Shown piece by piece: positions 19,872 through 34,118 of a stretch of 64,000 bases of DNA. The translations under genes and the position numbers were made by a program. The DNA lies in assembly GCA_945861715.1 (NCBI GenBank), contig CAMAVK010000004.1, positions 784 through 64,783 on the forward strand. The letters run 5' to 3'. The notes below the pieces were generated by a model, which did not search any database, was not told the DNA's origin, and saw only the letters and a program-made list of their open reading frames with translations. This DNA is from Candidatus Woesearchaeota archaeon. GTDB taxonomy: Archaea > Nanobdellota > Nanobdellia > Woesearchaeales > GW2011-AR9. Within the stretch, counting starts at the first letter, position 1, and each line of letters begins with the position of its first letter.

Positions 19872-20651
19872 TCATACTAAATCTACTGGTCTGGATTTAT
19901 TTCGTTTTAGTTTTCGTGTTTCGGTGTCTTTTTGACGTGTGGCTCTGTCAGTCATCATTTGGTCGTAGATTTCTTGCGGGTCATTTTTTAGACCAAGTTT
20001 TTTGAAATGGTTACATACATTTTCAAGGTCACGTCTTAGAAGTTCTCGACAATTAGGTGTTTTTGTAAGAGTTGATTGTGAGAAGTCAATAAGAATTGGT
20101 TTTTCTTCATCGTTTAAGATGTTGAATGCTGAGAGGTCACCGTGCACGAGTCCTGCGATGTATAGTTTTTTAATTTGTACTATAGTTTGGTCAAAAAAAT
20201 CTTTGGGATTTTTTGGATCTTGATCTTTGAGAGTATTTGCAGGTTCGCCTTTTCCTACCATTTCTTCAATGAGAATATTTTGCATGAAATTGAGTGGTTT
20301 TGGTACGTTGATTTTTGCTGCGTAGGCTTTGTGGAGATTTTTGAATTCTCGTTGTGTCCATGCAAAAATGATTTGTCGTTTGTGACTTTTTAGATAATCA
20401 TACCGTGGATCTTTTCTAATATAATCATACATTCTGTTGAAGTCACAGTTTTGTAATCGGTAGATTTTAATGATGATATTTTTTCTTCCTTTTCTGGCTA
20501 CAAACACATTGGATTCCTTACCTACTTTGATGGGGATTAATGGTTCTTCAAAAACATCGCGTGACTGGAGTTCGAAGAGGTTTCGTTTGGTAAATTCGTC
20601 AAATACTCCTTTGTCTGTTTTGAATCGTTCCTGATATTTGAGAGTGACCAT
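19872..20651 (-). CDS. rio1: RIO1-type serine kinase/ATPase
   Basis: Motifs GKESNVF, IKIYR, WTQREFKNL, LVHGDLSAFNIL and IDFSQS. Confidence 0.96.
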   Translation of the reverse strand: MVTLKYQERFKTDKGVFDEFTKRNLFELQSRDVFEEPLIPIKVGKESNVFVARKGRKNIIIKIYRLQNCDFNRMYDYIRKDPRYDYLKSHKRQIIFAWTQREFKNLHKAYAAKINVPKPLNFMQNILIEEMVGKGEPANTLKDQDPKNPKDFFDQTIVQIKKLYIAGLVHGDLSAFNILNDEEKPILIDFSQSTLTKTPNCRELLRRDLENVCNHFKKLGLKNDPQEIYDQMMTDRATRQKDTETRKLKRNKSRPVDLV

Positions 20652-20833
20652 TTTTTTGTTTGATTCGTTGTTTGTGATGAATTGTTTGTATTGATTTGGT
20701 GGTGGTATGTGTATTGATATATGTATTGATATAGATGTTAGTATGGTGACTTCTTTTTAAAGTGATTGTTCTAGATATTTTTGTAGAGATTTCTTCTAGA
20801 TTTTCTTTTGGAATATTTTTTGAGAGTATAGGA

Positions 20834-23335
20834 TTATATCAGATTTAATTGTTGGTTTTGGGCCAATATTCTTTTGATGTCTGCAAATGTTCGTTCTGCT
20901 TTGGTTTGATATATATCTAAAGCAGGTGGATGTCCTTCATTTATTGGCCTTAGTATGGCACGGACTCCGGTTGTTGATTTGGTTGTGTGTATATGTTGTG
21001 TTCCAGCGGCGTAGGTTACGTACATGCTGGGGGGGTAGGGGTTGATTATTTTGTCATGCAGTTCTATGAGGTAGGCGTGTGCATAGATGTCTTTTGTTTG
21101 ACTTAGTATGACTTCGAGTTCTTTTTTTGCATCCGGTGAGAAATGGTCATGAATTCGATGTTTCATTTGTTGGAATGCTATTTTTGTTTCCGATGAGGCA
21201 GTGGAGGTGTTTAGGATTTGGTTGAATTCTTCTTTATAGAAACTTCGTGTTTTTTGAGTGATATAGTATGCTGCAATTGGGAGTTGTCCTGTATAATATT
21301 GTTCGAGTTGTTCGTTTAAGTTGTGGAGTATTTTTGGGTGTGACTCATGGTTGAAGAATTGGTCAATGATGGCTTGAAGTGTAACTTTTTCAAAATCTGT
21401 GCGGGTGTGAAAGGTTGCGTTTATTCCTTGATATATTCTTGGATATGGTGTTTGTGCTGCTAAGTTTATGGGGTGTGGATCCGTTACGAATCGGCCCGGT
21501 GAGAGGGATAGTACTGGGCCTGAACCCAGGTATACTCCCATTCCATTTTTTTCTAATGTACTGGCGTCAATTTCTTTTTCTAGCAGGTAGAGAAGAGGAC
21601 TTGAATTGATGTAGCCTTGTTGCTGAATTCTTGCATGCACACGTTGAATGTTGGTTGTGAGGTTAGTCATGAAGTTTTGTATTTGTTGAGGTTTGAGGCC
21701 GTAACGTTTGCTTAGATTTCGTAGCGCGTTGGTGATTTCGTCAGTTGGGACTTTGGTTTTGAGTCTGGTTGCTTGTTCAAATAATGGTCTTGTGATTTCT
21801 TGAAGGCTGTTGAAATAATCCATTTTTATTATTGGGTCGTTGGTTTCTTGCGCTGCGCGGTATAGGGTGGTGTTTTGCAGAAATTCTTGTGCTGCGTGGA
21901 GCGCGGGCGTTAGTGATATCACATATGCCGTTTCTATGAAACCTTGTTTGAATTTGAGTGCTTGTGTTGTTGTTGTTTTTTGGGTATGCGGGTGTGTTGT
22001 TTTTTCTTGGTTTGGTGTTGTCGTTGTTTTTTGTTCAATAGTTTTTTGTGTGTGGGTTAAGATTGCATTATGGATATATTCTTTCGCGGGGATATTTCGA
22101 ATTCCTGTGTGAATATTTTTTCTAGAAGGGTATCCTTTGGTGTAGAAATGTTGGCGTTCAAGAAAATCGTTTACAATGGTAGGATGTGATGTTGCACTGA
22201 TTGTATCGGGGTCTCGGCCGAAAAAATGAGCGAGGTTAGCCACGATTGGACGTATTTCAAGGGCGAGGTTTTGTGCGTGAATGCCATCCATGATACAATA
22301 TGTTGCGAGGGTTTCGAAAACCTGCTGGTTCCCTGCTTTTGCTTGAGCTAGAAGAATTTCTTGTTCGTCATAGTCTATGGTTTTTTCGAACCCTACTAAT
22401 GTTTCTAGTTTTGTGTTTTGAAATAAGGATCGGTGATTTTTTGCAAATTTGTGTGTGTCAAGGGTGAAGCGTCCTTGTGTTATTACTTTTCCTAAGCCTT
22501 GCACTGATTTGATAAGGGGGCGTTTTCCTTGCGTTCCTGGAGTGTAAGTTTTTGTGATGTTTCTTATTTTGATTTGGTCAAAAGACATGATGTTGTGGCC
22601 AAAGATCCATAAGGGGTCGTCAGTGTGTATCAGTTCGGTTAGAATTTCTCCGAGGTCCTGCTGCGTGCGATATCGGAGGAGGGTTATGTTTTCTAGATCA
22701 GGGCTCTTGTTTGCTTGTTGAATGGTTCTTAATTGTGTTTGGTTGAAGGGGAGATTGTGGAGGAGAATGTGGTGATTTTGTGAGAGGTAGATGGCCATGA
22801 AAATTTGGTCTTTTCCTTGTTTCCATCCATCGAGCTCGATGTCTAATGTGACATGTGTGTCGTTGATTATGGATTCTATTGGTGGGTGGAGGTTGTATTG
22901 GGGTGGGGTGATTATTGTGGGTGGAAGATGCGAGGGGTTTTCTATGGTGGTACAGGGTGGGTAGAGGTAGCGAAGATAGGTACTTGGGGGATATTGTAGA
23001 TGTCGGGTGTGGTATGATGGGTTTTTCGTTACGAATGGTGCGTCAAGAAGGGTTTTTGTGTCCTTTGCTGTATCTAAGGTAAGAATGCGATTTGGATAAT
23101 ATGGGATTTCATTGGTTGTGTATGGAGTGCCTTTGAGGAATTCTTGAAGTGATGTTTTGAGTTTGGTTGCTTCTATATCTGAAATTGGACTTGTGAAAAA
23201 ACGATGAGGGATGTTGGCAAGGAGGTGATACGTTGCACCAATCATTGTTTTAGGATTGAATTCTCGAATGGTGATTATTGTTTGGTCGCCTTTGATTGGG
23301 TGGGTTGGACGAATATTTGTAATGTACCAATGCAT
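20834..23335 (-). CDS. Family-B DNA polymerase homolog: intact 3'-5' exonuclease motifs, apparently inactivated polymerase
   Basis: ExoI LDIELD, ExoII GHNIMSFD, ExoIII YCIMD, and thumb-like RTDFEK and YVTY...LDIY. No DFxSLYP, KxxxNSxYG or YGDTDS is present. Confidence 0.8.
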   Translation of the reverse strand: MHWYITNIRPTHPIKGDQTIITIREFNPKTMIGATYHLLANIPHRFFTSPISDIEATKLKTSLQEFLKGTPYTTNEIPYYPNRILTLDTAKDTKTLLDAPFVTKNPSYHTRHLQYPPSTYLRYLYPPCTTIENPSHLPPTIITPPQYNLHPPIESIINDTHVTLDIELDGWKQGKDQIFMAIYLSQNHHILLHNLPFNQTQLRTIQQANKSPDLENITLLRYRTQQDLGEILTELIHTDDPLWIFGHNIMSFDQIKIRNITKTYTPGTQGKRPLIKSVQGLGKVITQGRFTLDTHKFAKNHRSLFQNTKLETLVGFEKTIDYDEQEILLAQAKAGNQQVFETLATYCIMDGIHAQNLALEIRPIVANLAHFFGRDPDTISATSHPTIVNDFLERQHFYTKGYPSRKNIHTGIRNIPAKEYIHNAILTHTQKTIEQKTTTTPNQEKTTHPHTQKTTTTQALKFKQGFIETAYVISLTPALHAAQEFLQNTTLYRAAQETNDPIIKMDYFNSLQEITRPLFEQATRLKTKVPTDEITNALRNLSKRYGLKPQQIQNFMTNLTTNIQRVHARIQQQGYINSSPLLYLLEKEIDASTLEKNGMGVYLGSGPVLSLSPGRFVTDPHPINLAAQTPYPRIYQGINATFHTRTDFEKVTLQAIIDQFFNHESHPKILHNLNEQLEQYYTGQLPIAAYYITQKTRSFYKEEFNQILNTSTASSETKIAFQQMKHRIHDHFSPDAKKELEVILSQTKDIYAHAYLIELHDKIINPYPPSMYVTYAAGTQHIHTTKSTTGVRAILRPINEGHPPALDIYQTKAERTFADIKRILAQNQQLNLI

Positions 23336-23679
23336 GTTATGTATAATGATTTCATTTTAAACTGGATTTGTGGTTTTGGAAAGATATTTCATAGCAAGCA
23401 TGTTTTAAGCAAATGAGGATTAGTTAGTACTTGAAAGTGACATATTTAGCAAAAGATTTATATAGTCGTTGTCTTTTGATAGTAGTTAACACCTAAAAAC
23501 CACCTCTTTTCCTCGGCGAACTGATTTATTAGTTTGCTGGGGTTTTTCCTATTTTTCTTGCTTTGTGATTTATTGTCAATCACTTCATTTTTACCTTTGA
23601 TTCACCAAATAAAGTTATATTTTGGTTTTTTCTATTTTGTACCGACACATTTATATAATAGGCTTTATTATACTCGTTT

Positions 23680-23757
23680 GCCCGGCACAGAGAGTACCTG
23701 TGGGAGCCTACGGCATGGTCCAAGTCATGAACGCAGGGGTTAGTGGTGCGGGCGTCA
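23680..23757 (+). ncRNA. Putative small structured RNA (long hairpin, H/ACA-guide-like architecture)
   Basis: GC-rich island in an AT-rich spacer. Pairings gcccg-gcac/gtgcgggc and cctgtg/cgcagg. TATA-like TTTATATA at 23650-23657. Confidence 0.5.
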
Positions 23758-24128
23758 TTTACCAAATATCCATAGTTACATTGTATAATTAGATTGACAT
23801 TTTTCAGTTTGGTTATACGATAATAAAAATAACAAATTTGTTTCGATTACGATATGTTGTTGTCATTGCTTGCAAAAAAAATAAATCCTTATCACATTCA
23901 TCATATATCATTGTAGTTCGTTTAGGTTAGTGTCAAGACGGTTAGAATTGGTATAGCTAGGTTTATTTTTTCTGGAAGTACTTTGTGGATTGTTTGGTTT
24001 ATGAAGGTATGGTTAGAACTATACCTATTAAACCGATTACACATGAGTATAATTTTGATTCATTTCCGTTAAGAGATGTTTTCATATTGTTTCATTAAAA
24101 TTTCGAGCAAGAGCTCGTGGAGGACTTT

Positions 24129-25610
24129 ATGGCAAAGATTAGCCCAGTTGCGGCAAAATATATTGTACATTCAACTATCACTATTGATGGTATTGTAGAT
24201 CGACCAGATGTTATTGGTGCGATTTTTGGACAAACTGAGGGATTGCTTGGTGCAGACTTAGAATTACGTGAGTTGCAGCGAAGTGGTCGAATTGGACGTA
24301 TTGAAGTTAATATGAATACGGTTTCTGGTAAGACAACTGGTGAGATTATTATACCAAGTAGTTTAGATAAGACTGAGACAGCAATTGTTGCGGCTGCTCT
24401 TGAGATTATTCAACGTATTGGTCCGTGTAACGCGAAAATTGAAGTTCATAAGATTGAAGATGTTCGTACATCGAAGCGACAATTCGTTATTGAAAGAGCT
24501 AAGGAACTTCTTCGTGAGCTTACTGAGGAAACTCTTCCAGATTCGCAAGAAATTGCAGATGAAGTTGCTCAATCAGTTCGTATGATGGAAGTAGGCGAAT
24601 ATGGTAAGGAACGACTTGCGTGTGGCCCGGCTATTGAAGAAAGCGATGAGGTTATTCTTGTTGAAGGTCGAGCAGATGTATTGAATCTATTAAAACATGG
24701 TTTCAAGAACGTTATTGCAATGAATGGAACGTCTGCTCCACAGACGATTCGTGAACTTAGTCGACGAAAGACGATTACCGTGTTTGTTGATGGGGATCGT
24801 GGCGGAGATTTAATTGTTCGTGAATTGCTTGCGAATGCAGAAATTGATTTCGTTACCAAAGCACCAGATGGGAAAGAAGTTGAAGAACTGGCGAAAAAGG
24901 AAATTCATAAAGCGATTCGTTCACGGATTACCGCTGAACAAGCTAAGATGGATTTGGGTATTGATGAGCATGGTCAACTTAAAGATCAAGAGGAAACTCT
25001 TCGACATCAACCTTTTAGAACGCAAAAGAATGTTGGGTCAGTTCAAATTAACCCGAATTACCACGCTCAAGCTGGTTCTGCTCCATCGCATTCACCAGTT
25101 GGTCAAATGGGATATGCTGCTCATTCTGCGCAGGGTATGGTTGCTGCAGTAAAGAAAACTGAGAAAGTTGATTCTACTCCAATGGTTGCTCCTGTAAAGC
25201 CGCAATCGAGTGTTGCTGTGAATTCTTCTCGAAGCGTTGGTGGGCCAGTTGTTCCTAATGGTGCTTCTCGACCCCGTGAGATGATTAAGGAAGTTGTTGT
25301 TCCTAAGAAGGCGGGTTTGTCTGATGAGGAAAAGAAGTTGTTTAAAGCAACACTTGAAGATATGTTTGGAACTCGAGGAGCTTGCATATTTGATCATAAA
25401 CTTGCAATTCTTGGAAAAGTTCCTTTGTCTGAACTTCCATCTACTATTAAGAGTTTGAATGGCGGTGTGTATGCTATTGCTCTTGATGGCGCGGTTGAAA
25501 CTGAACTTGTTAAGTTAGCTGAGAAGATTAACGTAACTTATCTTGTGTGTTCAAGTTCAAAGAATAAGGATCCAACGAAGATTCAGATTTTAACAGAAGA
25601 TAAGTTGTAG
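24129..25610 (+). CDS. dnaG: Archaeal DnaG (bacterial-type primase, exosome-associated)
   Basis: Motifs GIVDRPDVIGAIFGQTEGLLG, LRELQRSGRIGRI, TOPRIM ILVEGRADVLNL and FVDGDRGG, and APDGKEVEEL. Confidence 0.97.
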   Translation: MAKISPVAAKYIVHSTITIDGIVDRPDVIGAIFGQTEGLLGADLELRELQRSGRIGRIEVNMNTVSGKTTGEIIIPSSLDKTETAIVAAALEIIQRIGPCNAKIEVHKIEDVRTSKRQFVIERAKELLRELTEETLPDSQEIADEVAQSVRMMEVGEYGKERLACGPAIEESDEVILVEGRADVLNLLKHGFKNVIAMNGTSAPQTIRELSRRKTITVFVDGDRGGDLIVRELLANAEIDFVTKAPDGKEVEELAKKEIHKAIRSRITAEQAKMDLGIDEHGQLKDQEETLRHQPFRTQKNVGSVQINPNYHAQAGSAPSHSPVGQMGYAAHSAQGMVAAVKKTEKVDSTPMVAPVKPQSSVAVNSSRSVGGPVVPNGASRPREMIKEVVVPKKAGLSDEEKKLFKATLEDMFGTRGACIFDHKLAILGKVPLSELPSTIKSLNGGVYAIALDGAVETELVKLAEKINVTYLVCSSSKNKDPTKIQILTEDKL

Positions 25611-25721
25611 GAGTTTGATTGTTTTTTTTTAATTTTTTCTTTGATTTTTTTGTTAAAGTTTTCTTAAGAATTAATTTTATTTTCCTTGTTTTTGTACAAA
25701 AATTAAAAAGAAAAAAAATGA

Positions 25722-26429
25722 TTAGTTAAATCGACTCTTGCAGAGGATATCAAAGTTTATTACGTACATCCCGCCTGCAAAATTTTGTTGTACGATATTT
25801 CGGAAGATAATTTTTGTTCCATCTGCTAATGTGTGACTTTCTCCAATAGCTAAATTGAATTGTTCTCCATCCATCCAAAATTGCCATTGATTCTGTAATG
25901 TTATCGGATCAAAATTGCTGGGTGCTAGGTCGGTTGCTTTGATTAGATATCCTTTAGCACATGCTTTCTCTAATGTGAACTGAAATCTTCTGATTCCGCC
26001 CGCATAGGCTTGATATAAACCATCTTGGAGGGTGACTTGAAATCCTGAGGGTGATACATATCGATATCCAGTTGGGAGAGATAACGTATCTTGTTCATTA
26101 TTGATGGAGAGACTCATTTGAAAATCATTTCCTGCTTGTGGTGTTGGTTCAAATGCTGCGGTGATTTCATAATATTTTAATTCAGCAGGACAGGTTGGGC
26201 ATTTTGTCTTTTGGAGATTTAATTGTTGTCCTGCTTTGATTGCTTGACCTGCGAATGCGGTATCGTCTGTATTTGCTGATACTTCTAAGGATGCTTGTTG
26301 TGGTCTAGTATTGACAAATACGATTGCGATTATTGCTACGACTGCGACTATTCCGATTATCCAAACAATGTGACTCGTGCTTGTTGTTTTTGGTTGCTCT
26401 TTTTTGGATTTAACTTTTGATTTTGGCAT
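25722..26429 (-). CDS. Membrane-anchored extracellular protein
   Basis: Basic N-terminus, one TM helix (IVWIIGIVAVVAIIAIVFV), beta-rich remainder containing CPTC. SD-like gaggtg upstream. Confidence 0.7.
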   Translation of the reverse strand: MPKSKVKSKKEQPKTTSTSHIVWIIGIVAVVAIIAIVFVNTRPQQASLEVSANTDDTAFAGQAIKAGQQLNLQKTKCPTCPAELKYYEITAAFEPTPQAGNDFQMSLSINNEQDTLSLPTGYRYVSPSGFQVTLQDGLYQAYAGGIRRFQFTLEKACAKGYLIKATDLAPSNFDPITLQNQWQFWMDGEQFNLAIGESHTLADGTKIIFRNIVQQNFAGGMYVINFDILCKSRFN

Positions 26430-26616
26430 TAGTATGCACCTCTTTTTGGGAGAAGTAGGGGAAGTTTCGTTATAAAGATTTTTTACCCCCCCCAGGATTA
26501 AAAATTGATTTGGAGGGTGGTTTTTGATATAATTTGATCTTTTAGTTGTTACTTTTTTTGTATTTTTTCAAATATTTAGGGTAAGATTTATATGTTTAAT
26601 ATATTTTAAGTAATAT

Positions 26617-27273
26617 ATGATTATTTATAATCCTCGTAGTCAGCGATTGTTGGAAAAGCGTGTGAAGGTCGTGGAAGACATGTTTTCTCAAACGGGGGTT
26701 CCCCATTGTTTTGTCTCTGGATCATTTTTGTATAAAGAAAAATATGGCGATATTGATATTTTTGTTGTGAGTCGCACAAAGAAAAAAATTACATTCGATA
26801 ATTCAAAGGTTAATTTGACCGTTATTGATTTTAATGATCTTTCCTCTTTGTTTTATTATTCTGTTTCTAAGAGTTGTATCGCAAAAAATATTCTTCCAAA
26901 ACATACTTTGAAAGTGACACTTTCTGATTATTGGCATGTAATTAATGAAGCAATTCCTACTATTTTTAATCAGAAGGATATGTATCATAAAGATATTCGT
27001 TTTCTTATTCTTTATACTGAATATTTTAAGACGGGAAACGTGTTGGATACGTTCGAGTTGACACAGAAAATTGATTCTTTTCAAGGTTATGTTGATGTTT
27101 TGAATTATGTTCGTTGTGAGGTTCCTTTTATTTTTGCCAAGGGGGCTAAAATTTCCTATTTGAAACGTTTTTTTTATACCCAGGCTGGTTTCTATAAGGA
27201 TATGCGAGATTATAAGGCACAGGATTTCTTATATACTTTAACACATGAAATTGTTCTTGGTCGGGAGGTGTAG
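26617..27273 (+). CDS. Nucleotidyltransferase (Pol beta superfamily, MNT-like) with helical C-terminal domain
   Basis: FVSGSFLYKEKYGDIDIFVV matches the GS...DxD signature. Confidence 0.8.
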   Translation: MIIYNPRSQRLLEKRVKVVEDMFSQTGVPHCFVSGSFLYKEKYGDIDIFVVSRTKKKITFDNSKVNLTVIDFNDLSSLFYYSVSKSCIAKNILPKHTLKVTLSDYWHVINEAIPTIFNQKDMYHKDIRFLILYTEYFKTGNVLDTFELTQKIDSFQGYVDVLNYVRCEVPFIFAKGAKISYLKRFFYTQAGFYKDMRDYKAQDFLYTLTHEIVLGREV

Positions 27274-27276
27274 TGT

Positions 27277-27669
27277 GTGGTAGATTCTGCTGAATTTAAG
27301 AAAAATATTGAGTTGCTTCTTTCACAAGATTATAATGTAGAATTCTTAGGTGGTAATTTTGATCAGATTGTTCTATCATTAAGTGACGTTAAGGCAGAAA
27401 AAATGTATATTTGGATCCGAAGTGTTATTGAACGTGAGGTTCAGCCGATTCTGGTTGGTTCAACGAAACCGTATAAAGGTTGGAAGGTTAATGAGTTGCT
27501 TACGTTTCGTTATCCATTTAGCATTGAGAACACTGAATATCGAATTTTGTTTGTTAAGGTTAAAAATTCTATTTATGTAGAATTCCATCTTGGGGATCAT
27601 AAATATTATGATAAAGTGCGAAAAGATCTGAATTTGAAGGAAGATGATAGTTGTGCGGATTATGATTGA
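27277..27669 (+). CDS. RelE/ParE-like toxin candidate
   Basis: C-terminal EYRILFVKVKNSIYVEFHLGDHKYYD resembles the RelE-family 'YRI.Y.....v....G.H...Y' pattern. It starts 3 nt after the NTase stop and has an SD ggaggtg. Confidence 0.55.
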   Translation: MVDSAEFKKNIELLLSQDYNVEFLGGNFDQIVLSLSDVKAEKMYIWIRSVIEREVQPILVGSTKPYKGWKVNELLTFRYPFSIENTEYRILFVKVKNSIYVEFHLGDHKYYDKVRKDLNLKEDDSCADYD

Positions 27670-27698
27670 TTGTTAGCGAGGCAATTAAGAATGGGTAT

Positions 27699-28172
27699 TC
27701 ACATATCGTCTTCATCAGGTTTGCCGATAAGTTCGTCTCTTGCGTGTTCATAGAAGGCGTGTAAGAATTTTTCACAATTAGTTAAGGTGTCAATGGAGAT
27801 CTCTGCTGTTGAACTTTCAAGAGGAACAATTAAAGTCACGTGCCGTCTATATTCTTCGCGTTTGCCTTGGGGACTTTTTAAGACGGTTTTGAGAAATGTG
27901 TAGAAAGTGAGATATCGCAGCATGTTTTCGTCGTGTTCATACATTTCGGCTAATTTGGTTGAACGTAATGCAGGACTTTTTGGAAGGTTTTCGATTTTTC
28001 CTTCCAATTTTGCTTTTTCGAGGTATGCTTCGATGATTAAATCATATGTTGATGTCATACGATTGAGTGCGTTTAGAATGACGTCGACGGTTCTTGTATA
28101 CTTGAGGGATACATAAATTATGTGTTCGATGCGTTTTAATTCTTCTTTAGCTTCGAAAAGATATTCCTCCAT
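27699..28172 (-). CDS. Hypothetical helical-bundle protein (HEPN-like fold possible)
   Basis: Amphipathic helices EAKEELKRIEHIIYVSLKYTRTVDVILNAL. Confidence 0.75.
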   Translation of the reverse strand: MEEYLFEAKEELKRIEHIIYVSLKYTRTVDVILNALNRMTSTYDLIIEAYLEKAKLEGKIENLPKSPALRSTKLAEMYEHDENMLRYLTFYTFLKTVLKSPQGKREEYRRHVTLIVPLESSTAEISIDTLTNCEKFLHAFYEHARDELIGKPDEDDM

Positions 28173-28405
28173 TAATTTGACTACCCCCGTTAAGTAAGTA
28201 CTGTATATATGGTATTGCCTATTTATGCTTTTCTATTGAGAAGTTTGCATATTTTCTCAAAAATTAGGCAAACTGAAGAAAGATTGTTATCTTTCTGCAT
28301 AGAAAATGAGTCGCTGCTCATTTTCATATTATCAAAGAGAATTTTGCAATGGTTCCATTTGAGCTTATTCTTGCAAAGTTCTCTGTTATTTTGGATTATT
28401 TTGCC

Positions 28406-28816
28406 TTATTTTTGTTGGTTGTTTACGTTTTGGATGATTTGTTTTATTTGGATTATGATGTTTTGAATGTCATTTTTGTTGATGGTTGTTTTTTGTTGAA
28501 ATTCGTTGGTATACATAATTATATGATCTTTTGTGTTTATTTCAGTTGGACATGAGTGGTGTGTTGAGAGAAGGTTTTGAATATGACTTTGGATGGTTTT
28601 TAATTGGTTCAATAAAGTAGACTGATAGTTGTTATTTGTATTTTGGGGGGTGAGGGTGTGTTGTTGGATTATCTGGATTAATTCTTCAGTTATGTTTTGT
28701 AAGAGGGATAAGATGCTTAGAAATATTCGTGGATCTTCTGTATGTGGAAATATTTCAAGAAGAAGTTGCTCTGCACGTTCTAATTTGAATTGGATTTGCT
28801 GATATGTTGAATTCAT
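28406..28816 (-). CDS. Hypothetical helical protein, distantly similar to 27699..28172
   Basis: KLERAEQLLLEIFPHTEDPRIFLSIL parallels ELKRIEHIIYVSLKYTRTVDVILNAL. Confidence 0.65.
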   Translation of the reverse strand: MNSTYQQIQFKLERAEQLLLEIFPHTEDPRIFLSILSLLQNITEELIQIIQQHTLTPQNTNNNYQSTLLNQLKTIQSHIQNLLSTHHSCPTEINTKDHIIMYTNEFQQKTTINKNDIQNIIIQIKQIIQNVNNQQK

Positions 28817-28836
28817 TGCGAAGTAAATGGGTCTAA

Positions 28837-29178
28837 TTATTTTTTGAGGTTCATTATTGCTAGAGCCAAATCACCTTCGCTTTCTTCAAGCGCTGCTAAT
28901 GCTTTGTCTTGGTTCGCTCCGGTTTGTTCCATGACAGTATCGATGTCGTCTTGGGTAATTTCAATTGCTGCTACGATGTCATCTGAACTTCTTTCTTGCG
29001 CGTTTCCTACTACTTGGTATGTGACTTGTCCCATTGCATTTACTTTTGATACTTGGGGGTTGTCAATAACGAGTTCTTTATTTCCTTCAAGTTTGATGAT
29101 GACTTGTGTTGCTTTGACTTCCACTTGTTGGATGCCAAGTTGTTTCATCATTTGTTGCATTTGTTTTGGATTCATCAT
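28837..29178 (-). CDS. nac: Nascent polypeptide-associated complex protein (aeNAC)
   Basis: Motifs MNPKQMQQMMKQLGI, VIDNPQVSKV, YQVVG, and a UBA-like DIDTVMEQTG...ALEESEGDLALAIM. Confidence 0.97.
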   Translation of the reverse strand: MMNPKQMQQMMKQLGIQQVEVKATQVIIKLEGNKELVIDNPQVSKVNAMGQVTYQVVGNAQERSSDDIVAAIEITQDDIDTVMEQTGANQDKALAALEESEGDLALAIMNLKK

Positions 29179-29232
29179 GGGAATATCAATTTTTGAGGTT
29201 TATTTTTTATTTTAAAGGCTGATCTATTTTTC

Positions 29233-29409
29233 TTATTGTCCTATAAAATTATTTCCAAAGAAATGGAGTAGAATAATTATAGTCATGATCATAAGACAAA
29301 GGATGAATACAACGCCAGGTGAGAGCCTGAATTTTGAGACATTTTCGTTTGAGAAACGTGTTAATCCTCCTTGACCGGAGGGCATTTGGATTTGATTATT
29401 TTGAGCCAT
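29233..29409 (-). CDS. secG: Preprotein translocase subunit Sec61beta/SecG
   Basis: MPSGQGGLTRFSNE...LSPGVV followed by a single TM helix. ATG at 29409. Confidence 0.92.
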   Translation of the reverse strand: MAQNNQIQMPSGQGGLTRFSNENVSKFRLSPGVVFILCLMIMTIIILLHFFGNNFIGQ

Positions 29410-29584
29410 TTCGATATGACGAGACGGCACTTTTATATAGTTTTTGGAAAGTTTCTTCTTTTTTTGGCGGTTAGGTTCTTATTTGGAGTTTTTTGTTTAT
29501 GAAATCATCGTCTCTTCATATTCCGCTCGTTATTGGATATCATGTGGCTGTACCTGTTTTATCTCTTCAAGATTTAAAAAAAAT

Positions 29585-29952
29585 GGTAGGGTGGCGTAAG
29601 CCGCCTTTTGTTAGGCCCAAAGAAAAACCGTCATATATGTTTTTCCGATAGCCATTGAAAGCATTCTACTTAGCGTCGAATCGACTTGCACCAGGGGGGT
29701 TTCACCGTTTCATCGTTCCCACAAAAGACGTCGATGGGTTATCTCATGTATGTTGCCATACACTTCGCCAGGTCATTCCATTTTTGTGGACGTGTCGTGT
29801 CTGAGCCAGAGCCACGGAATTTCTCCGTCTGACATTGTATTCAGTCCCTTTTTTTAGGTGGGCGGACTTTCCTCACAGGCTAAATCATTTTACTGATCTA
29901 TGGGACTTATTGCATTCCCTAAAGCTTGCGTAAGCTTTCTGCCACTACTACC
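29585..29952 (-). ncRNA. rnpB: RNase P RNA
   Basis: The minus strand has GAGGAAAGUCCG (P4 5' side), GAAACGGUGAAAC and AACAAAAGGCGGCUUAC (P4 3' side). The termini ggtagtagtggc/gccaccctacc pair as P1. TATA-like CTTAAATA lies just upstream. Confidence 0.93.
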
Positions 29953-30089
29953 AATATGCTATTTTGGGGTGTTTTATTTAAGGATTTGTGCGGAAATTTA
30001 AAAAAATGTTATTAGTTCGTTTTATTGTTGTGTGGCAGGAGTGTTTTTTTATTAAACAGAAAAAAGTAAAAAAAAGTGTGCGGTTTTCT

Positions 30090-30869
30090 TTATTGAGATT
30101 TTATATACTCACTTATCATCTCCATTCTTTCATTAAAATAGGTGGTATTTTGTGAGCGCCATAACGGATTTTTTGCGGAGTTGGCTGCTATTCTAACTTC
30201 GTGATCTAACTCTTTGAGAGTACAGTCTAATTTTCTGGTTAGTTTTGGTGGGGTGTTTACCATGAAATCTTTTGCTTGATGAAAGGCTTGTACAATATCG
30301 TCAATTTGGTGAACTTCTGGGATTATATAGATTCCTTGTGAGGTTAATACTGGTTCGGTCAGATTATTTCTTGGCGCTAAAAGTGAGTAAAGACTGATTA
30401 TTACGGGTGATCTAATATTATCTCGTTCATCTACATTTCGATATTTCTCTAGGGTACTATCATGAATTCCAAGAGCTAGGATTCGGGTATCTGATCCTTG
30501 TGTTTCAGGATTTGGATATATTCTGATATTTGGGGTGAGTAGGTCTTTACGGCTGTCTCCTTCTAAATATGCAGGAATTAATCTTACGGTGTTTTTTGAG
30601 GGGTTGTCACCTGTGCTTATATTGACTGAGTATGTTGATGATGGGTTTTCTTGCACTATTTGAAATCTTACATAATCAGGAAGTAATTCCAACCATGCAG
30701 TCGAAAATTGTTCAAATGCTTTTGTTTTTATTGGTGGATTGTCACAAGGATATCGAGATAATCCTGAAATTTTATATCTTTCTGTAGAACTAAGTATGTC
30801 GATATTTTGTGCTTCTGTTGGTGTACATTTGAAAAGTCCTTGTCCGTTTCTTATTTCTTGTAATTCCAT
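30090..30869 (-). CDS. Hypothetical protein
   Basis: 259-aa ORF with an ATG start. No motif recognised. Confidence 0.7.
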   Translation of the reverse strand: MELQEIRNGQGLFKCTPTEAQNIDILSSTERYKISGLSRYPCDNPPIKTKAFEQFSTAWLELLPDYVRFQIVQENPSSTYSVNISTGDNPSKNTVRLIPAYLEGDSRKDLLTPNIRIYPNPETQGSDTRILALGIHDSTLEKYRNVDERDNIRSPVIISLYSLLAPRNNLTEPVLTSQGIYIIPEVHQIDDIVQAFHQAKDFMVNTPPKLTRKLDCTLKELDHEVRIAANSAKNPLWRSQNTTYFNERMEMISEYIKSQ

Positions 30870-30959
30870 TTTATTTCTCCGATTTGTATGATTTTTCTTA
30901 TTAGTATAATTAGAAAAAATGCGTTTTGGGTTTTAAGTATTTGTATTTGATGGTGTGTA

Positions 30960-31649
30960 TTAAATCACGACTTCGACTTTTAGTAATAATTCTTTCATGC
31001 CTTTGAGATGGCCTGCACCAACAATTACCATGATTTTTTTTTCGGGGTTTTTGCGCATTATTTGAATGAGTTTTTTGACCATGTATTTGTTTCGGTCTTC
31101 GATAATGGCCTTGTGGAGCGATGGATAGCGTTTTTCCATGTAGGTCATCATTTTTTCGATGAGTTCGTCTTCTGGGACTTTTTTGAGATCGAAATCAATC
31201 CCCATGAGTTCTGCTTGTTTTTTGGGTCGTACGAGGCCTTTTATGATGTCGGATGCGAATCTTCCTTTTTCTTTCCATCCAAATCCCCTTGATATGTTTT
31301 TGAGGGTGATTTCTATTGGTTGGTCGATTAATGCGATTTCTTTTTTGTTCTTGGCTGCGAGGTCTAGGCCCGCTTTCATATCATCACCTGCGTTTACCCC
31401 AACAGCTTTTCCTAGTTTTTGTTGGGCGCTTTGGCCAAGAAGAGCAAATAGATAGCCTGTGAGACCTAACTCAAAGATTGCTTTTGGTGAAAGGGTGGTT
31501 TTGTCTTGTTTTGGGTTTAAAAGTGCGTGAGCTCGTTTGATGTCTAACTCAATAGCTATGATGTCTGGAGCGAAGCTTTTGAATGCGCTTTCTATCTCGT
31601 CAATACTTTGTTTTGCAATATGGGATGTACCTATTATGTGGAGTTGCAT
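30960..31649 (-). CDS. TraB/PrgY (pheromone shutdown) family protein
   Basis: Motifs IIGTSHIAKQS, PDIIAIELD, GDDMK, LIDQPIEITL, EDRNKYM and VIVGAGHLKGM. Confidence 0.93.
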   Translation of the reverse strand: MQLHIIGTSHIAKQSIDEIESAFKSFAPDIIAIELDIKRAHALLNPKQDKTTLSPKAIFELGLTGYLFALLGQSAQQKLGKAVGVNAGDDMKAGLDLAAKNKKEIALIDQPIEITLKNISRGFGWKEKGRFASDIIKGLVRPKKQAELMGIDFDLKKVPEDELIEKMMTYMEKRYPSLHKAIIEDRNKYMVKKLIQIMRKNPEKKIMVIVGAGHLKGMKELLLKVEVVI

Positions 31650-31724
31650 AGCGTTAATAGAGCATAGAAAAGTATATAAATGTAGGGAATGGCTATTTCT
31701 CGATTAAAGTCGAGGTGAATTATC

Positions 31725-31997
31725 ATGTTAAAGATGAAGAAAGTTTCTGAAGTGTACGATTTAAGAGTATTTACTGATTCAGGTGACTATTTTGGCGATG
31801 TCGATGACTGCCTTGTTGCTGGTAATAAGATTTCTGGTTGGAAGATTCGAGCTACAAAGACTTCGTATTTGGCTCGTGTTTTAGGTTCGGCTAAAGGAGT
31901 AATAGTACCTCATCAGTTGGTTAAAGCAATTGGGGATGTATTGGTTATTTCTCGAAGTGCTGTTCCTTCTGGAAATCCTGAGGATTCATCAGAATGA
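31725..31997 (+). CDS. PRC-barrel domain protein
   Basis: Motifs VFTDSGDYFGDVDD and VPHQLVKAIGDVLVI. SD gaggtga upstream. Confidence 0.92.
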   Translation: MLKMKKVSEVYDLRVFTDSGDYFGDVDDCLVAGNKISGWKIRATKTSYLARVLGSAKGVIVPHQLVKAIGDVLVISRSAVPSGNPEDSSE

Positions 31998-32013
31998 GCT
32001 ATCACAAGTATGC

Positions 32014-32055
32014 TCAAGACCTCCTGAATTATCAATATGTTCAGGGGGATCTTGA
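32014..32055. terminator. 15-bp imperfect intergenic stem-loop
   Basis: tcaagacctcctgaa ... ttcagggggatcttga, with one G-U pair and one bulge. Confidence 0.4.
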
Positions 32056-32175
32056 CGAACTTGATTTTTCTTTTCATATTGCGGGATAGATGTTAGTGAC
32101 CAACGCGGGGGTGTTGTGTTAGCGAAGCTCTATTTTGCGATACTACTCTTCTTTTTCATAGTTTTTTTAAAGTGA

Positions 32176-33318
32176 TTGCTCTTTTTGCTTGTTATGGCTC
32201 TTTTACTTGATATGTTGCTTGGTTTTTGTCAGAATTATTTTGGTTTTACCTTTCTTGCTAATCAGTATTATGCTGCACTTTTCATTGTTGGCATGTTTGT
32301 TATTTTGGCACAAGTAATTTTGTTAGGTTTTAATATTTATTTACGACATCTCGCGAAGCGCACGACAACTCAATTTGATGATCTTATTTTTGATCAGACA
32401 AAACAACCGTTATTTGTGTTTATTTTAATTTTTGGAGTACGTCTGGCTCTTGAGCATGTTGGTGTCATTGGTTCTTTTACTAATTTGATTGATTCGGCTC
32501 TTGCCATGATTTTTTTGTATTTAGTTGTTCGTGTTACAGATGTTGCGATTCAAACGTGGGGTGATGTTGTTGCAAAGAAAACTGATACTCCAATTGATGA
32601 AATTTTATTGCCTTTCCTGCATAAGATTGTGAAGGCGGTTTTTGTCATTATTGGTATTATTTGGTTACTTCATATCTGGGGCGTTGATATTACCCCGTAT
32701 TTAGCTGGAGCGGGTATTGCGGGTATTATTTTAGGTCTTGCACTTCAAGATTCACTGAAGAATATTCTTGGTGGCATTAGTTTGCTTCTTGATAAGACGT
32801 ATCAAGTTGGTGATAAGGTAGCGCTTGAGAATGGTGAGATTGGTCAGATTTCTGATATTGGACTTCGTAGTACAAAGATGGTGACGTATGATAATGAAGT
32901 GTTGTATGTTCCAAATGGGTATATGGCAAACTCTCGAGTTCGTAATTATACCCGACCTGATCCGTCTGTTCGGGTCAAGGTTGATTTTGGGGTTGAGTAT
33001 GGGTCTGATGTAGGGCATGTTCAAAAAGTGGTACTCAAGGTGATTGATTCTATTGAAGGGGTTAAGAAAGAACCTGTTCCTGCGGTTAATTTTTTGTCGA
33101 TGGGAGATTTTGCCCTTAAATTTAGGGCTACTTTTTGGGTTGAGACGTGGGGGCTTGAGTTTCCTCGGAAAGTGGAAGCTACGGAGAAAATTTATAACGC
33201 ATTGAATAAGGCAAAGATTGGAATACCATTTCCGACACAGACGGTACTTTTGTCTAAAGCGGGTAGAGTTTCGCGTTCATCAAGAAAGTCTGTTCAAATT
33301 TTTAAGGTTAAAGAGTGA
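32176..33318 (+). CDS. mscS: Small-conductance mechanosensitive channel MscS family
   Basis: Motifs LAGAGIAGIILGLALQDSLKNILGGI, YQVGDKV, DIGLRST, VPNGYMAN, VDFGVEYGSD and GIPFPTQT. Confidence 0.96.
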   Translation: MLFLLVMALLLDMLLGFCQNYFGFTFLANQYYAALFIVGMFVILAQVILLGFNIYLRHLAKRTTTQFDDLIFDQTKQPLFVFILIFGVRLALEHVGVIGSFTNLIDSALAMIFLYLVVRVTDVAIQTWGDVVAKKTDTPIDEILLPFLHKIVKAVFVIIGIIWLLHIWGVDITPYLAGAGIAGIILGLALQDSLKNILGGISLLLDKTYQVGDKVALENGEIGQISDIGLRSTKMVTYDNEVLYVPNGYMANSRVRNYTRPDPSVRVKVDFGVEYGSDVGHVQKVVLKVIDSIEGVKKEPVPAVNFLSMGDFALKFRATFWVETWGLEFPRKVEATEKIYNALNKAKIGIPFPTQTVLLSKAGRVSRSSRKSVQIFKVKE

Positions 33319-33374
33319 TTTTTTCTATTTTTGAGTGATAATCTTTAAAAGTGGGCATCTTTTTTATTCCTAGT

Positions 33375-34118
33375 ATGGCACAATTAAAAGTATCTCTACC
33401 TAAATTTGGATTTAATTTGTTGCAACAGTTTGTTGCGGATCGAGGAAGTGGAAATTTAACCGATGACGCGGCAAGACGGGCGGTGTTATATTTAGAGTCT
33501 AATTTATGTTTATTTAAAGGAATGCCTGAAGAAGTTTATGTTCGTGCGCTTGCAGAACATTATCGAGTGGGTGAAATACGTGCAATTCAGTGCGAGTTAA
33601 CTGAAATTTATCATTTGCCCACTAGTCAATTGCCTGTGCCAAGTCGGGTTCGTACGTTTTTTGAAGATCATAAATTAAATCGGATTGGTTATGTTGTTCA
33701 GTTCTCTCGAAAAGATTTCGTTATGTCTAAAAATTTTGGGTTGGGAAGTTTTGCACAGATGATGGATGTGTTACATGGAATTGATTCTCGTATAGAAGTT
33801 GGTTCACCTATTACATATGTTCATGATTCGGATGCTTTTCAGGTAAGGACTTGTCTTGAGCAACCGGTCATTGATGTTATTATAAATCCTGAGACACGTC
33901 TTTTTCGTTTTTTTGAGCGGCAACGGGAGATGATTGAGAAAATAGAAAGGAATGTTCGAGTCGCTGATTTTGTGATTTTTCCTGAATCGGTTATTTCTAT
34001 GTCTGATTATCAACGACGCAACGCTTTAGATTCACTGAGGCATCTTCATCCAAGCATTCATTTTGGGATGGATAAACAGTATTTGAATGAGAAGTTGGGT
34101 ATTGAGTTTGCTCAATAG
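33375..34118 (+). CDS. Hypothetical protein with an RNA polymerase alpha-CTD-like (HhH) domain
   Basis: SQLPVPSRVRTFFEDHKLNRIGYVVQFSRKDFVMSKNFGLGSFAQMMDVL parallels the alpha-CTD 'L.LSVR..N.L....I..IGDLV......L....NFG.KSL.EI'. Confidence 0.65.
   Translation: MAQLKVSLPKFGFNLLQQFVADRGSGNLTDDAARRAVLYLESNLCLFKGMPEEVYVRALAEHYRVGEIRAIQCELTEIYHLPTSQLPVPSRVRTFFEDHKLNRIGYVVQFSRKDFVMSKNFGLGSFAQMMDVLHGIDSRIEVGSPITYVHDSDAFQVRTCLEQPVIDVIINPETRLFRFFERQREMIEKIERNVRVADFVIFPESVISMSDYQRRNALDSLRHLHPSIHFGMDKQYLNEKLGIEFAQ

Follow-up and report, generated by a model that had tools for sequence, protein, structure and literature searches.

The question raised by this locus is what two adjacent genes, one for a nucleotidyltransferase (NTase) and one for a small basic protein, are doing in the chromosome of a Woesearchaeota archaeon. 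The pair lies in a stretch of 64,000 nucleotides (nt) of contig CAMAVK010000004.1, here called the window, which is a low-GC archaeal chromosome segment obtained from a lake-water metagenome. The two genes are named A and B in the order of transcription. An earlier note on this DNA had described them as a candidate toxin-antitoxin (TA) or defence module in which an NTase is joined to a RelE-like protein. Re-reading of the open reading frames (ORFs) found its coordinates, its motifs (GS...DID in A, YRILF...GDHKYY in B) and the orientation of the pair, opposite to the neighbouring genes, all to be correct. On the basis of comparison with related loci, we tentatively favour the reading that A restrains B, a RelE/HigB-like effector, in a type VII-like arrangement which has been domesticated on the chromosome.

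A and B were found together with great regularity. Scanning of species-representative genomes for A gave 75 loci in 73 genomes, and 73 of the 75 loci have room to test for B. B is situated directly downstream of A in 62 of these 73 loci. A is intact with B degraded or absent in nine, both genes are damaged in one, and A is broken with B absent in the remaining one. Of 80 metagenome loci anchored on B, 78 extend far enough upstream to test for A, and every one of these has an adjacent A gene. The two genes overlap by 8 nt (..cATGgtTAA) in 45 out of 59 junctions and B starts with ATG in 54 out of 59. The overlap indicates that the translation of B is coupled to the end of A. The junction in the window is an atypical minority form, in which B begins 3 nt after the TAG of A with a GTG start. 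Here a Shine-Dalgarno-like sequence stands 6 nt before the start codon, inside the end of A, while in other loci a GAGGT or GGGG stretch is located about 10 nt before the ATG of B, within conserved R-G codons of A. The pairwise divergence of A and that of B are also correlated (r = 0.70, 98 loci). Together, these comparisons support the A-B pair as the conserved unit, apparently coupled in translation, in agreement with the coupled gene pair proposed before.

Homologue clusters numbered 482 for A (60-67% identity) and 356 for B (67-87% identity) over full length. All source-named clusters of both proteins are called hypothetical, and nearly all the names are Woesearchaeota or Nanoarchaeota. 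On the evidence of these homologues, the A-B operon is restricted to Woesearchaeota-type DPANN archaea. An exhaustive profile search with B gave 57 representatives, many of them fragments, among 1.84 billion proteins, so the B family is narrow. The genuine RelE/ParE family (PF05016) of the same archaea, with 70-93% identity in 377 clusters, is equally conserved; a high identity, as seen in A and B, is thus by itself no guide to whether a gene has a housekeeping or a TA role, and the argument that high conservation means housekeeping was dropped. A few carriers have unusual labels. Locus L074 (MHII01000033.1), which carries the A-B module, is labelled 'Candidatus Buchananbacteria', a Candidate Phyla Radiation (CPR) bacterium, probably through an error of binning or labelling. 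Many other carriers are labelled 'uncultured Methanosarcinales', which is probably a mis-assignment. One metagenome-assembled genome (MAG), assembly JAGVIO01, possesses three divergent copies of A (L047, L066 and L075; 48-55% identity to the A of the window), two of them with B. These are either paralogues or the result of a mixed bin.

The A family reads CF[IV][TS]G35-S36-x8-D45-I-D47-[IV]F at the position of the Pol-beta signature, hGS-x8-DhDh. The spacer of 8 residues between GS and the aspartate is one below the textbook range of hG[GS]-x(9-13)-Dh[DE]h. G35, S36, D45, D47 and D71 are invariant in 38 aligned homologues, and D71, the third carboxylate (in IDFND), is placed at the end of a predicted strand (residues 65-70). 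The AlphaFold2 (AF2) model, with a predicted local distance difference test (pLDDT) score of 83.4, is composed of an alpha/beta NTase core (about residues 1-100) followed by a six-helix C-terminal domain (102-214). In Foldseek comparison with PDB, the top 35 matches of this model were all NTases (HalB, ANT(9), KNTase, AadA, HI0073, MntA). The best of them was HalB (E 6.5e-3, probability 1.0, template modelling (TM) score 0.42, about 10% identity), and the KNTase, ANT and AadA folds matched with TM scores of 0.3-0.4 and high root-mean-square deviation. Sub-threshold Pfam matches were seen among the 38 members, namely to NTP_transf_2 in 16 (best E 0.012), DUF6932 in 11 and Polbeta in 8, and a PADLOC oligonucleotide cyclase model was weakly matched by five. 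The A of the window had no Pfam or NCBIfam match at E <= 1 and reached the cut-off of no NTase model; PDB searches with single sequences and profiles of A gave no meaningful matches, and PADLOC and PHROGs returned nothing for the window protein. By its residues and computed fold, for which the matches are weak but consistent, A is a Pol-beta-type NTase, and it is probably catalytically active. The NTase with an extra helical domain claimed in the earlier note is thereby borne out.

Two features of A deserve separate mention. The R-x(4-6)-H motif is not present in its C-terminal domain on reading of the sequence, so this domain should not be an active HEPN RNase, and the idea of A as a fused MNT-HEPN protein was dropped. 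The N-terminus, MIIYNP (residues 1-6), is invariant in the family and predicted to be flexible or disordered (pLDDT <50). In HalB, one of the protein's own tyrosines serves as the primer for synthesis (PMC13434031), and the flexible tail of A with its invariant tyrosine is reminiscent of NTases of this kind, which are protein-primed or nucleotidylylate themselves.

B is a basic protein, of 121-125 amino acids (aa) in most relatives and slightly longer in the window. The motifs YRILF (residues 88-92) and GDHKYY (106-111) are inside a nearly invariant C-terminal block. W46, F77, R89, K94, K96, H108 and Y111 are invariant, the near-invariant block reads NS.YIEFHLGDHKYYD, and the family signature is K-x-K-N..[YF]IEFHLGxHxYYD. 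The AF2 model is of moderate confidence (pLDDT 70.7) and shows an N-terminal helix (about 18 aa) followed by a beta-alpha-alpha-beta-beta-beta-alpha core. The predicted elements are the extra helix (4-15), a strand (20-23), two helices (28-33 and 37-51), three strands (74-83, 86-95 and 98-105) and a last helix (108-117). The PADLOC model PD-Lambda-2_A, a component described as HigB-like (PMC9519451), was matched by 12 of 32 members of the family with a best E of 1.8e-4, the match of the B of the window being weak. The alignment is collinear, with residues 41-115 of B on profile positions 21-93 of 97, and the N-terminal offset of 20 residues agrees with an N-terminal extension of B. One of the 32 members also matched YafQ_toxin (E 0.016). 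In cross-searches among about 3,000 small ORFs from A-B loci, the top non-family matches of a hidden Markov model (HMM) of the B family included a YoeB-like ORF (E 0.047) and the canonical RelE of locus L015 (E 0.53), and a RelE HMM in return weakly picked four members of the B family. The C-terminal ends of the YoeB-like family (..EWFDHKEYEKRF) and of B (..EFHLGDHKYYDKVR) are alike.

The YoeB-like toxin family itself is encoded a few kb from A-B in several genomes (Table 1), and its best PDB sequence matches are the YoeB entries 8yxv, 2a6q and 6l8e. For the B of the window, PHROGs returned nothing, and Foldseek against BFVD gave no significant match. The R-x(4-6)-H motif is absent in B on reading of the sequence, and Pfam and NCBIfam scans and Foldseek gave no HEPN matches. 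A protein of 273 aa (P0278) ends in 34 residues identical to the C-terminus of the window's B (VKVKNSIYIEFHLGDHKYYDKVRKDLNLK); its N-terminal part resembles a CheR-type methyltransferase by eye, and a chimeric assembly or gene call is probable.

The earlier note had seen a TATA-like box before the ATG of A and had taken the start as leaderless. Both points gained support when 69 non-redundant loci, anchored on this ATG, were compared. An element composed of a purine-rich B recognition element (BRE) and a TATA box is conserved at -36 to -23, with the consensus AAGATTTATAAATA, also given as AAAatTTATAAA. As the element is conserved in position across the 69 loci, the TTTATAT of the window, 24-30 nt before the ATG, is no chance AT-rich match. 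The centre of the TATA box at about -27 has the spacing expected for a transcription start at or next to the ATG, and this comparative spacing supports a leaderless A-B mRNA.

Two half-sites, inverted with respect to each other, stand on either side of the TATA box. RTTACYT of the upstream arm was found in 56 of the 69 loci, mostly starting at -70/-69, and ARGTAAY of the downstream arm (in TATA-W4-ARGTAAY) in 53, ending at -3/-2 in 36 of them, compared with a chance expectation for a half-site of about 5% per 120 nt. Both arms were found in 43 loci, and in 38 of these their span is a constant 66-67 nt. Since the variable positions do not co-vary between the arms, the half-sites are putative protein-binding sites and no hairpin; the idea that the inverted repeat forms a hairpin, in RNA or DNA, was dropped. 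In the 64 kb of the window, the motif occurs only at these two positions and, with one mismatch, at a third between the ribosomal L3 and L4 genes. The third site is without a downstream gene and is probably due to chance, and the half-site as a general promoter feature was likewise dropped. The inverted half-sites around the TATA box look like a dedicated operator of the A-B operon.

The two genes do not share the same fate when the pair decays. In the nine loci where A alone is intact, B was destroyed by separate deletions, truncations or replacements. L034 and L010 have in-frame internal deletions of B between short GAATT(T)C direct repeats. In L011 and L046, B is cut after about 25 codons and followed by foreign genes (a DUF433 gene in L011). 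L020, L040, L068 and L075 retain B remnants of 9-44 codons. In L015 the slot of B after the intact A is occupied by an RHH-like gene (weak Pfam match to RelB, E 0.017) and a ParE/RelE toxin gene (PF05016, E 1.3e-8). A recombination hotspot at the 'EFLG' codons of B was considered. L011 and L046 showed no remains of B further downstream, and an insertion site was therefore dropped as an explanation. The state of A was tested in eight of these loci, and in each of them the five catalytic residues are all present, along with 47-49 of 49 family-invariant positions. It follows that A is tolerated on its own and still apparently under constraint, which argues against A as a toxin in need of B. Repeated loss of B with A intact is the asymmetry expected if B is harmful or dependent and A protective; it fits B as such a partner or B as an accessory subunit. 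L079 has no B, and its A breaks off after about 140 codons; the next ORF resembles a DNA methyltransferase by eye.

The features of the locus and those of the related loci are collected in Table 1. Genes for Topo VI-B, a RIO kinase, a KH/Dim2-like protein, MscS and the RFC small subunit are also located near A-B in the window. With RNase P RNA and NAC, DnaG, the RIO kinase, Topo VI-B and RFC nearby, the surroundings belong to the core chromosome. Across loci, 263 neighbouring ORFs fell into 225 clusters, and the flanks are otherwise unrelated between genomes. Their Pfam content is ordinary, comprising EF-1alpha, hydrolases, glycosyltransferases and a tRNA synthetase. In one subclade (L019, L020, L026, L058) the cassette has the aEF-2 gene on one side and the EF-1alpha/S10 genes on the other, in a neighbourhood of translation genes that is highly conserved. 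Plus-strand GC skew around the pair is positive (+0.04 to +0.5) in all 600-nt windows regardless of gene strand, including a long minus-strand ORF without Pfam match.

Table 1. Positions of the A-B operon, its control elements and neighbours in the window, and of related features in other loci
Feature	Position	Strand	Remarks
Gene A	26617..27273	+	218 aa, ATG start
MIIYNP codons of A	26617-26634		residues 1-6
Gene B	27277..27669	+	130 aa, GTG start
Upstream half-site GTTACTTTTTTTGTA	26548..26562		family consensus RTTACYT-W4-TATA; inverted copy of downstream half-site
BRE/TATA element GGTAAGA + TTTATAT	26580..26593	+	TTTATAT at 26587-26593; centre about 27 nt before ATG
Downstream half-site TATATTTTAAGTAAT	26600..26614		between TATA box and ATG, ends 2 nt before start codon; exact match to pattern TATAWWWWARGTAAY
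Shine-Dalgarno-like GGAGGTG	27264-27270	+	before GTG of B
Flanking genes of the pair	25722..26429 and 27699..28172	- (both)	opposite strand to A-B
DnaG primase	24117-25610		near the pair
NAC	28837-29178		near the pair
Archaeal RNase P RNA	29587-29950	-	Rfam RF00373, 124 bits, full length; about 2 kb downstream of A-B
ORF without Pfam match	20834-23335	-	833 aa
Positive GC skew	20000-34000		600-nt windows
RHH-like and ParE/RelE genes in B slot	L015:2585-3080		after intact A
Interrupted A	L079:6001-7272		B absent
YoeB-like gene	L012:6774-7112		few kb from A-B
YoeB-like gene	L055:5485-5850		few kb from A-B
YoeB-like gene	L056:3041-3385		few kb from A-B
YoeB-like gene	L075:2159-2512	-	few kb from A-B

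How would such a pair work if A restrains B? The operon would be self-contained, with two genes, its own BRE/TATA promoter and, from the spacing, a leaderless mRNA. The half-sites flanking the promoter would bind a repressor, possibly the A-B complex itself, and B would be made through coupling to the end of A. A, as a presumably competent NTase, would hold off B, a small basic protein whose likeliest core is RelE/HigB-like and which would act on RNA. The favoured route is nucleotidylylation of B by A, which may take place for example on the invariant C-terminal Tyr110/Tyr111 beside His108, as MntA AMPylates HepT. The pair would then be a type VII-like TA system turned into a stable chromosomal growth or stress switch and no longer a mobile addiction element. 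HepT/MntA (HEPN-MNT, type VII) resembles A-B in being a small two-gene operon of a minimal Pol-beta NTase and a small RNase-type partner, and MNT proteins are among the fold matches of A. The proposed logic is also alike, as the NTase there neutralises its partner by (oligo)AMPylating a tyrosine next to the active site. The difference is that B is not a HEPN protein, neither A nor B having Rx4-6H, and that A is twice the size of MntA, possesses the six-helix domain and has no sequence match at family thresholds. With the type II systems RelBE, HigBA and YefM-YoeB, the pair shares the predicted topology of B, the C-terminal motif YRILF...HLGDHKYY, the weak collinear HigB-like matches, inverted repeats over the operon promoter and a putative toxin lost oftener than its partner. 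In contrast to these systems, the partner of B is an enzyme and not an RHH, HTH or Phd antitoxin, the gene of the putative toxin comes second and overlaps the first by 8 nt, and B has the extra N-terminal helix and gave no significant similarity to RelE-type families. The same genomes also have genuine RHH-RelE and YoeB-like genes, separate from the pair. The stronger claim, that B is the first RelE/HigB-superfamily RNase neutralised by an enzyme instead of a binding antitoxin, through nucleotidylylation of its C-terminal catalytic tyrosine or product gating, and that type VII logic so reaches the toxin superfamily of widest distribution and is fixed as a chromosomal growth switch in genome-reduced DPANN archaea, is unlikely on present evidence.

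Several observations weigh against A as the restrainer of a RelE/HigB-like B. On the side of B, Pfam, NCBIfam and PDB sequence searches, with single sequences and profiles, gave no significant match. In Foldseek comparison of B with PDB, MqsR (3hi2_B) alone was matched (E 0.13, probability 0.63, TM score 0.42), a comparison limited by the low-confidence model used as query, and canonical RelE, ParE, HigB or YoeB was absent from the top 50 matches despite the many RelE-type structures in PDB. In hhalign comparison the B family reached a probability of 0.7% with the genuine ParE/YafQ-type family of the same archaea and 0.3% with the YoeB-like family from A-B loci. For the RelE-like protein with N-terminal extension described in the earlier note, the predicted topology and the offset HigB-like matches are suggestive; significant similarity was not obtained by PDB sequence, Foldseek or hhalign comparison. 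Membership of B in the RelE superfamily is plausible and unproven, and we consider it somewhat more probable than the opposite. On the side of A, its intactness and apparent constraint in the absence of B suggest that it may have a function of its own. Two loci have a damaged A beside an intact B. In L098 the lysine-rich stretch of A has a frameshift associated with a duplication. In L147 a 111-nt in-frame deletion removes GS..DxD, the locus being otherwise 100% identical to L140, where A is intact. Both may be assembly artefacts or very recent or real variants; if real, they weaken a strict dependence of B on the catalysis of A. A recognisable DNA-binding domain, which would explain the operator, is absent from both A and B. 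Lastly, the context does not resemble that of a TA system. In the window the pair is embedded in a neighbourhood of housekeeping genes; of the 73 genomes, 72 have a single copy of the module; neighbour-gene profiling found the flanks not to be enriched in genes for TA, defence or mobile functions; and relatives of A were not found on IMG/VR viral contigs. The TA or defence role claimed earlier therefore has a mixed outcome: repeated loss of B with A intact and the absence of B without an A gene speak for it, copy number, context and viral contigs against it, and the pair may have such a role.

A housekeeping or regulatory two-subunit enzyme would accommodate many of these points. In that case A would be a lineage-specific NTase whose substrate is found in the cell, be it a small molecule, a protein or the 3' end of an RNA; B would be a non-toxic accessory for binding substrate or RNA; and no TA logic would be involved. 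The single-copy module in a core chromosomal context, without mobile or defence association, is in its favour, as are the conservation of A in full length and its complete preservation where B is lost, which gives A an apparent B-independent role. B occurs only beside an A gene, as an accessory subunit would, has no significant assignment to any toxin family, and persists in the two loci where A is damaged. Aminoglycoside-type enzymes such as KNTase ANT(4'), ANT(9) and AadA offer a comparison for A, as they too combine an N-terminal Pol-beta NTase core with a C-terminal helical domain; however, they act alone on small molecules, whereas A is coupled to a conserved partner gene. Against it, a variable neighbourhood and an own operator-flanked promoter would sooner be expected of an autonomous module, a useful subunit is not usually destroyed again and again in independent events, and one MAG has three divergent copies. 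The HigB-like matches and the basic His/Tyr C-terminal motif of B point to the RelE superfamily, and the carriers found are only 73 species-representative genomes, so the pair may not be universal in the order. We regard the two-subunit enzyme as rather unlikely, and as less probable than restraint of B by A. A further reading borrows from the Hailong system, in which HalB, of 216 aa against 218 aa in A and its best structural match, makes oligo-dA which restrains HalA (PMC13434031). Here A would constitutively make an (oligo)nucleotide, possibly primed on the invariant Tyr4, that holds effector B inactive, and loss of the product, for example by a viral nuclease, would free B. The NTase would again be the negative regulator of its partner, as proposed for A, and the invariant yet flexible MIIYNP, the weak oligonucleotide cyclase matches and the same asymmetry of loss, B lost with A kept and B never without an A gene, agree with it. 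But the similarity to HalB is weak, HalA is a transmembrane ion channel and B is a predicted small soluble protein unrelated to it, PADLOC detected no Hailong or other system, and the archaeal locus is without defence-island context. This product-mediated guard is improbable.

Reversed roles, with A as a toxin similar to MenT or AbiEii (modifying tRNA, for example) and B as its antitoxin, are very improbable. NTase toxins with a helical C-terminal domain are well established (PMC10435456, PMC11375011) and, like A-B, MenAT and AbiE are two-gene modules; in PD-lambda-2, moreover, the HigB-like component neutralises its partner and does not act as a toxin (PMC9519451). However, the NTase (DUF1814) of MenAT and AbiE is encoded second, opposite to the NTase-first order here; the DUF1814/AbiEii signature was not found in A by Pfam and PADLOC scans; and A with all its catalytic residues is tolerated where B is deleted or truncated. 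That the two genes have no functional link and are adjacent through shared ancestry alone is hardly credible, in view of the 8-nt overlap kept in most junctions, an A gene beside B in every testable B-anchored locus, the correlated divergence and the lack of any other conserved synteny. Among all these readings, the restraint of a RelE/HigB-like B by A is the one we prefer.

What is new beyond the earlier note, from comparison of the loci, is the overlap of 8 nt between the genes, the conservation of the leaderless promoter with its flanking operator-like sites, and the restriction to one lineage. There is no Pfam or NCBIfam model for the A or B family, neither family was found described in full-text searches on related topics, and the searchable literature gave no account of a RelE-type protein paired with an NTase. 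If A and B instead form a two-subunit enzyme, they would represent a lineage-specific NTase that has a partner of its own and an archaeal promoter-operator of unusually high conservation, and the regulation of transcription in DPANN archaea could be studied with the pair as a tractable model. If the favoured restraint of B by A is true, HEPN toxins would not be the only ones open to enzymatic neutralisation in the style of type VII, and RelE-type RNases could be controlled in this way as well. The pair would moreover offer a first entry point to the control of growth or dormancy in Woesearchaeota, organisms which are not yet culturable alone.

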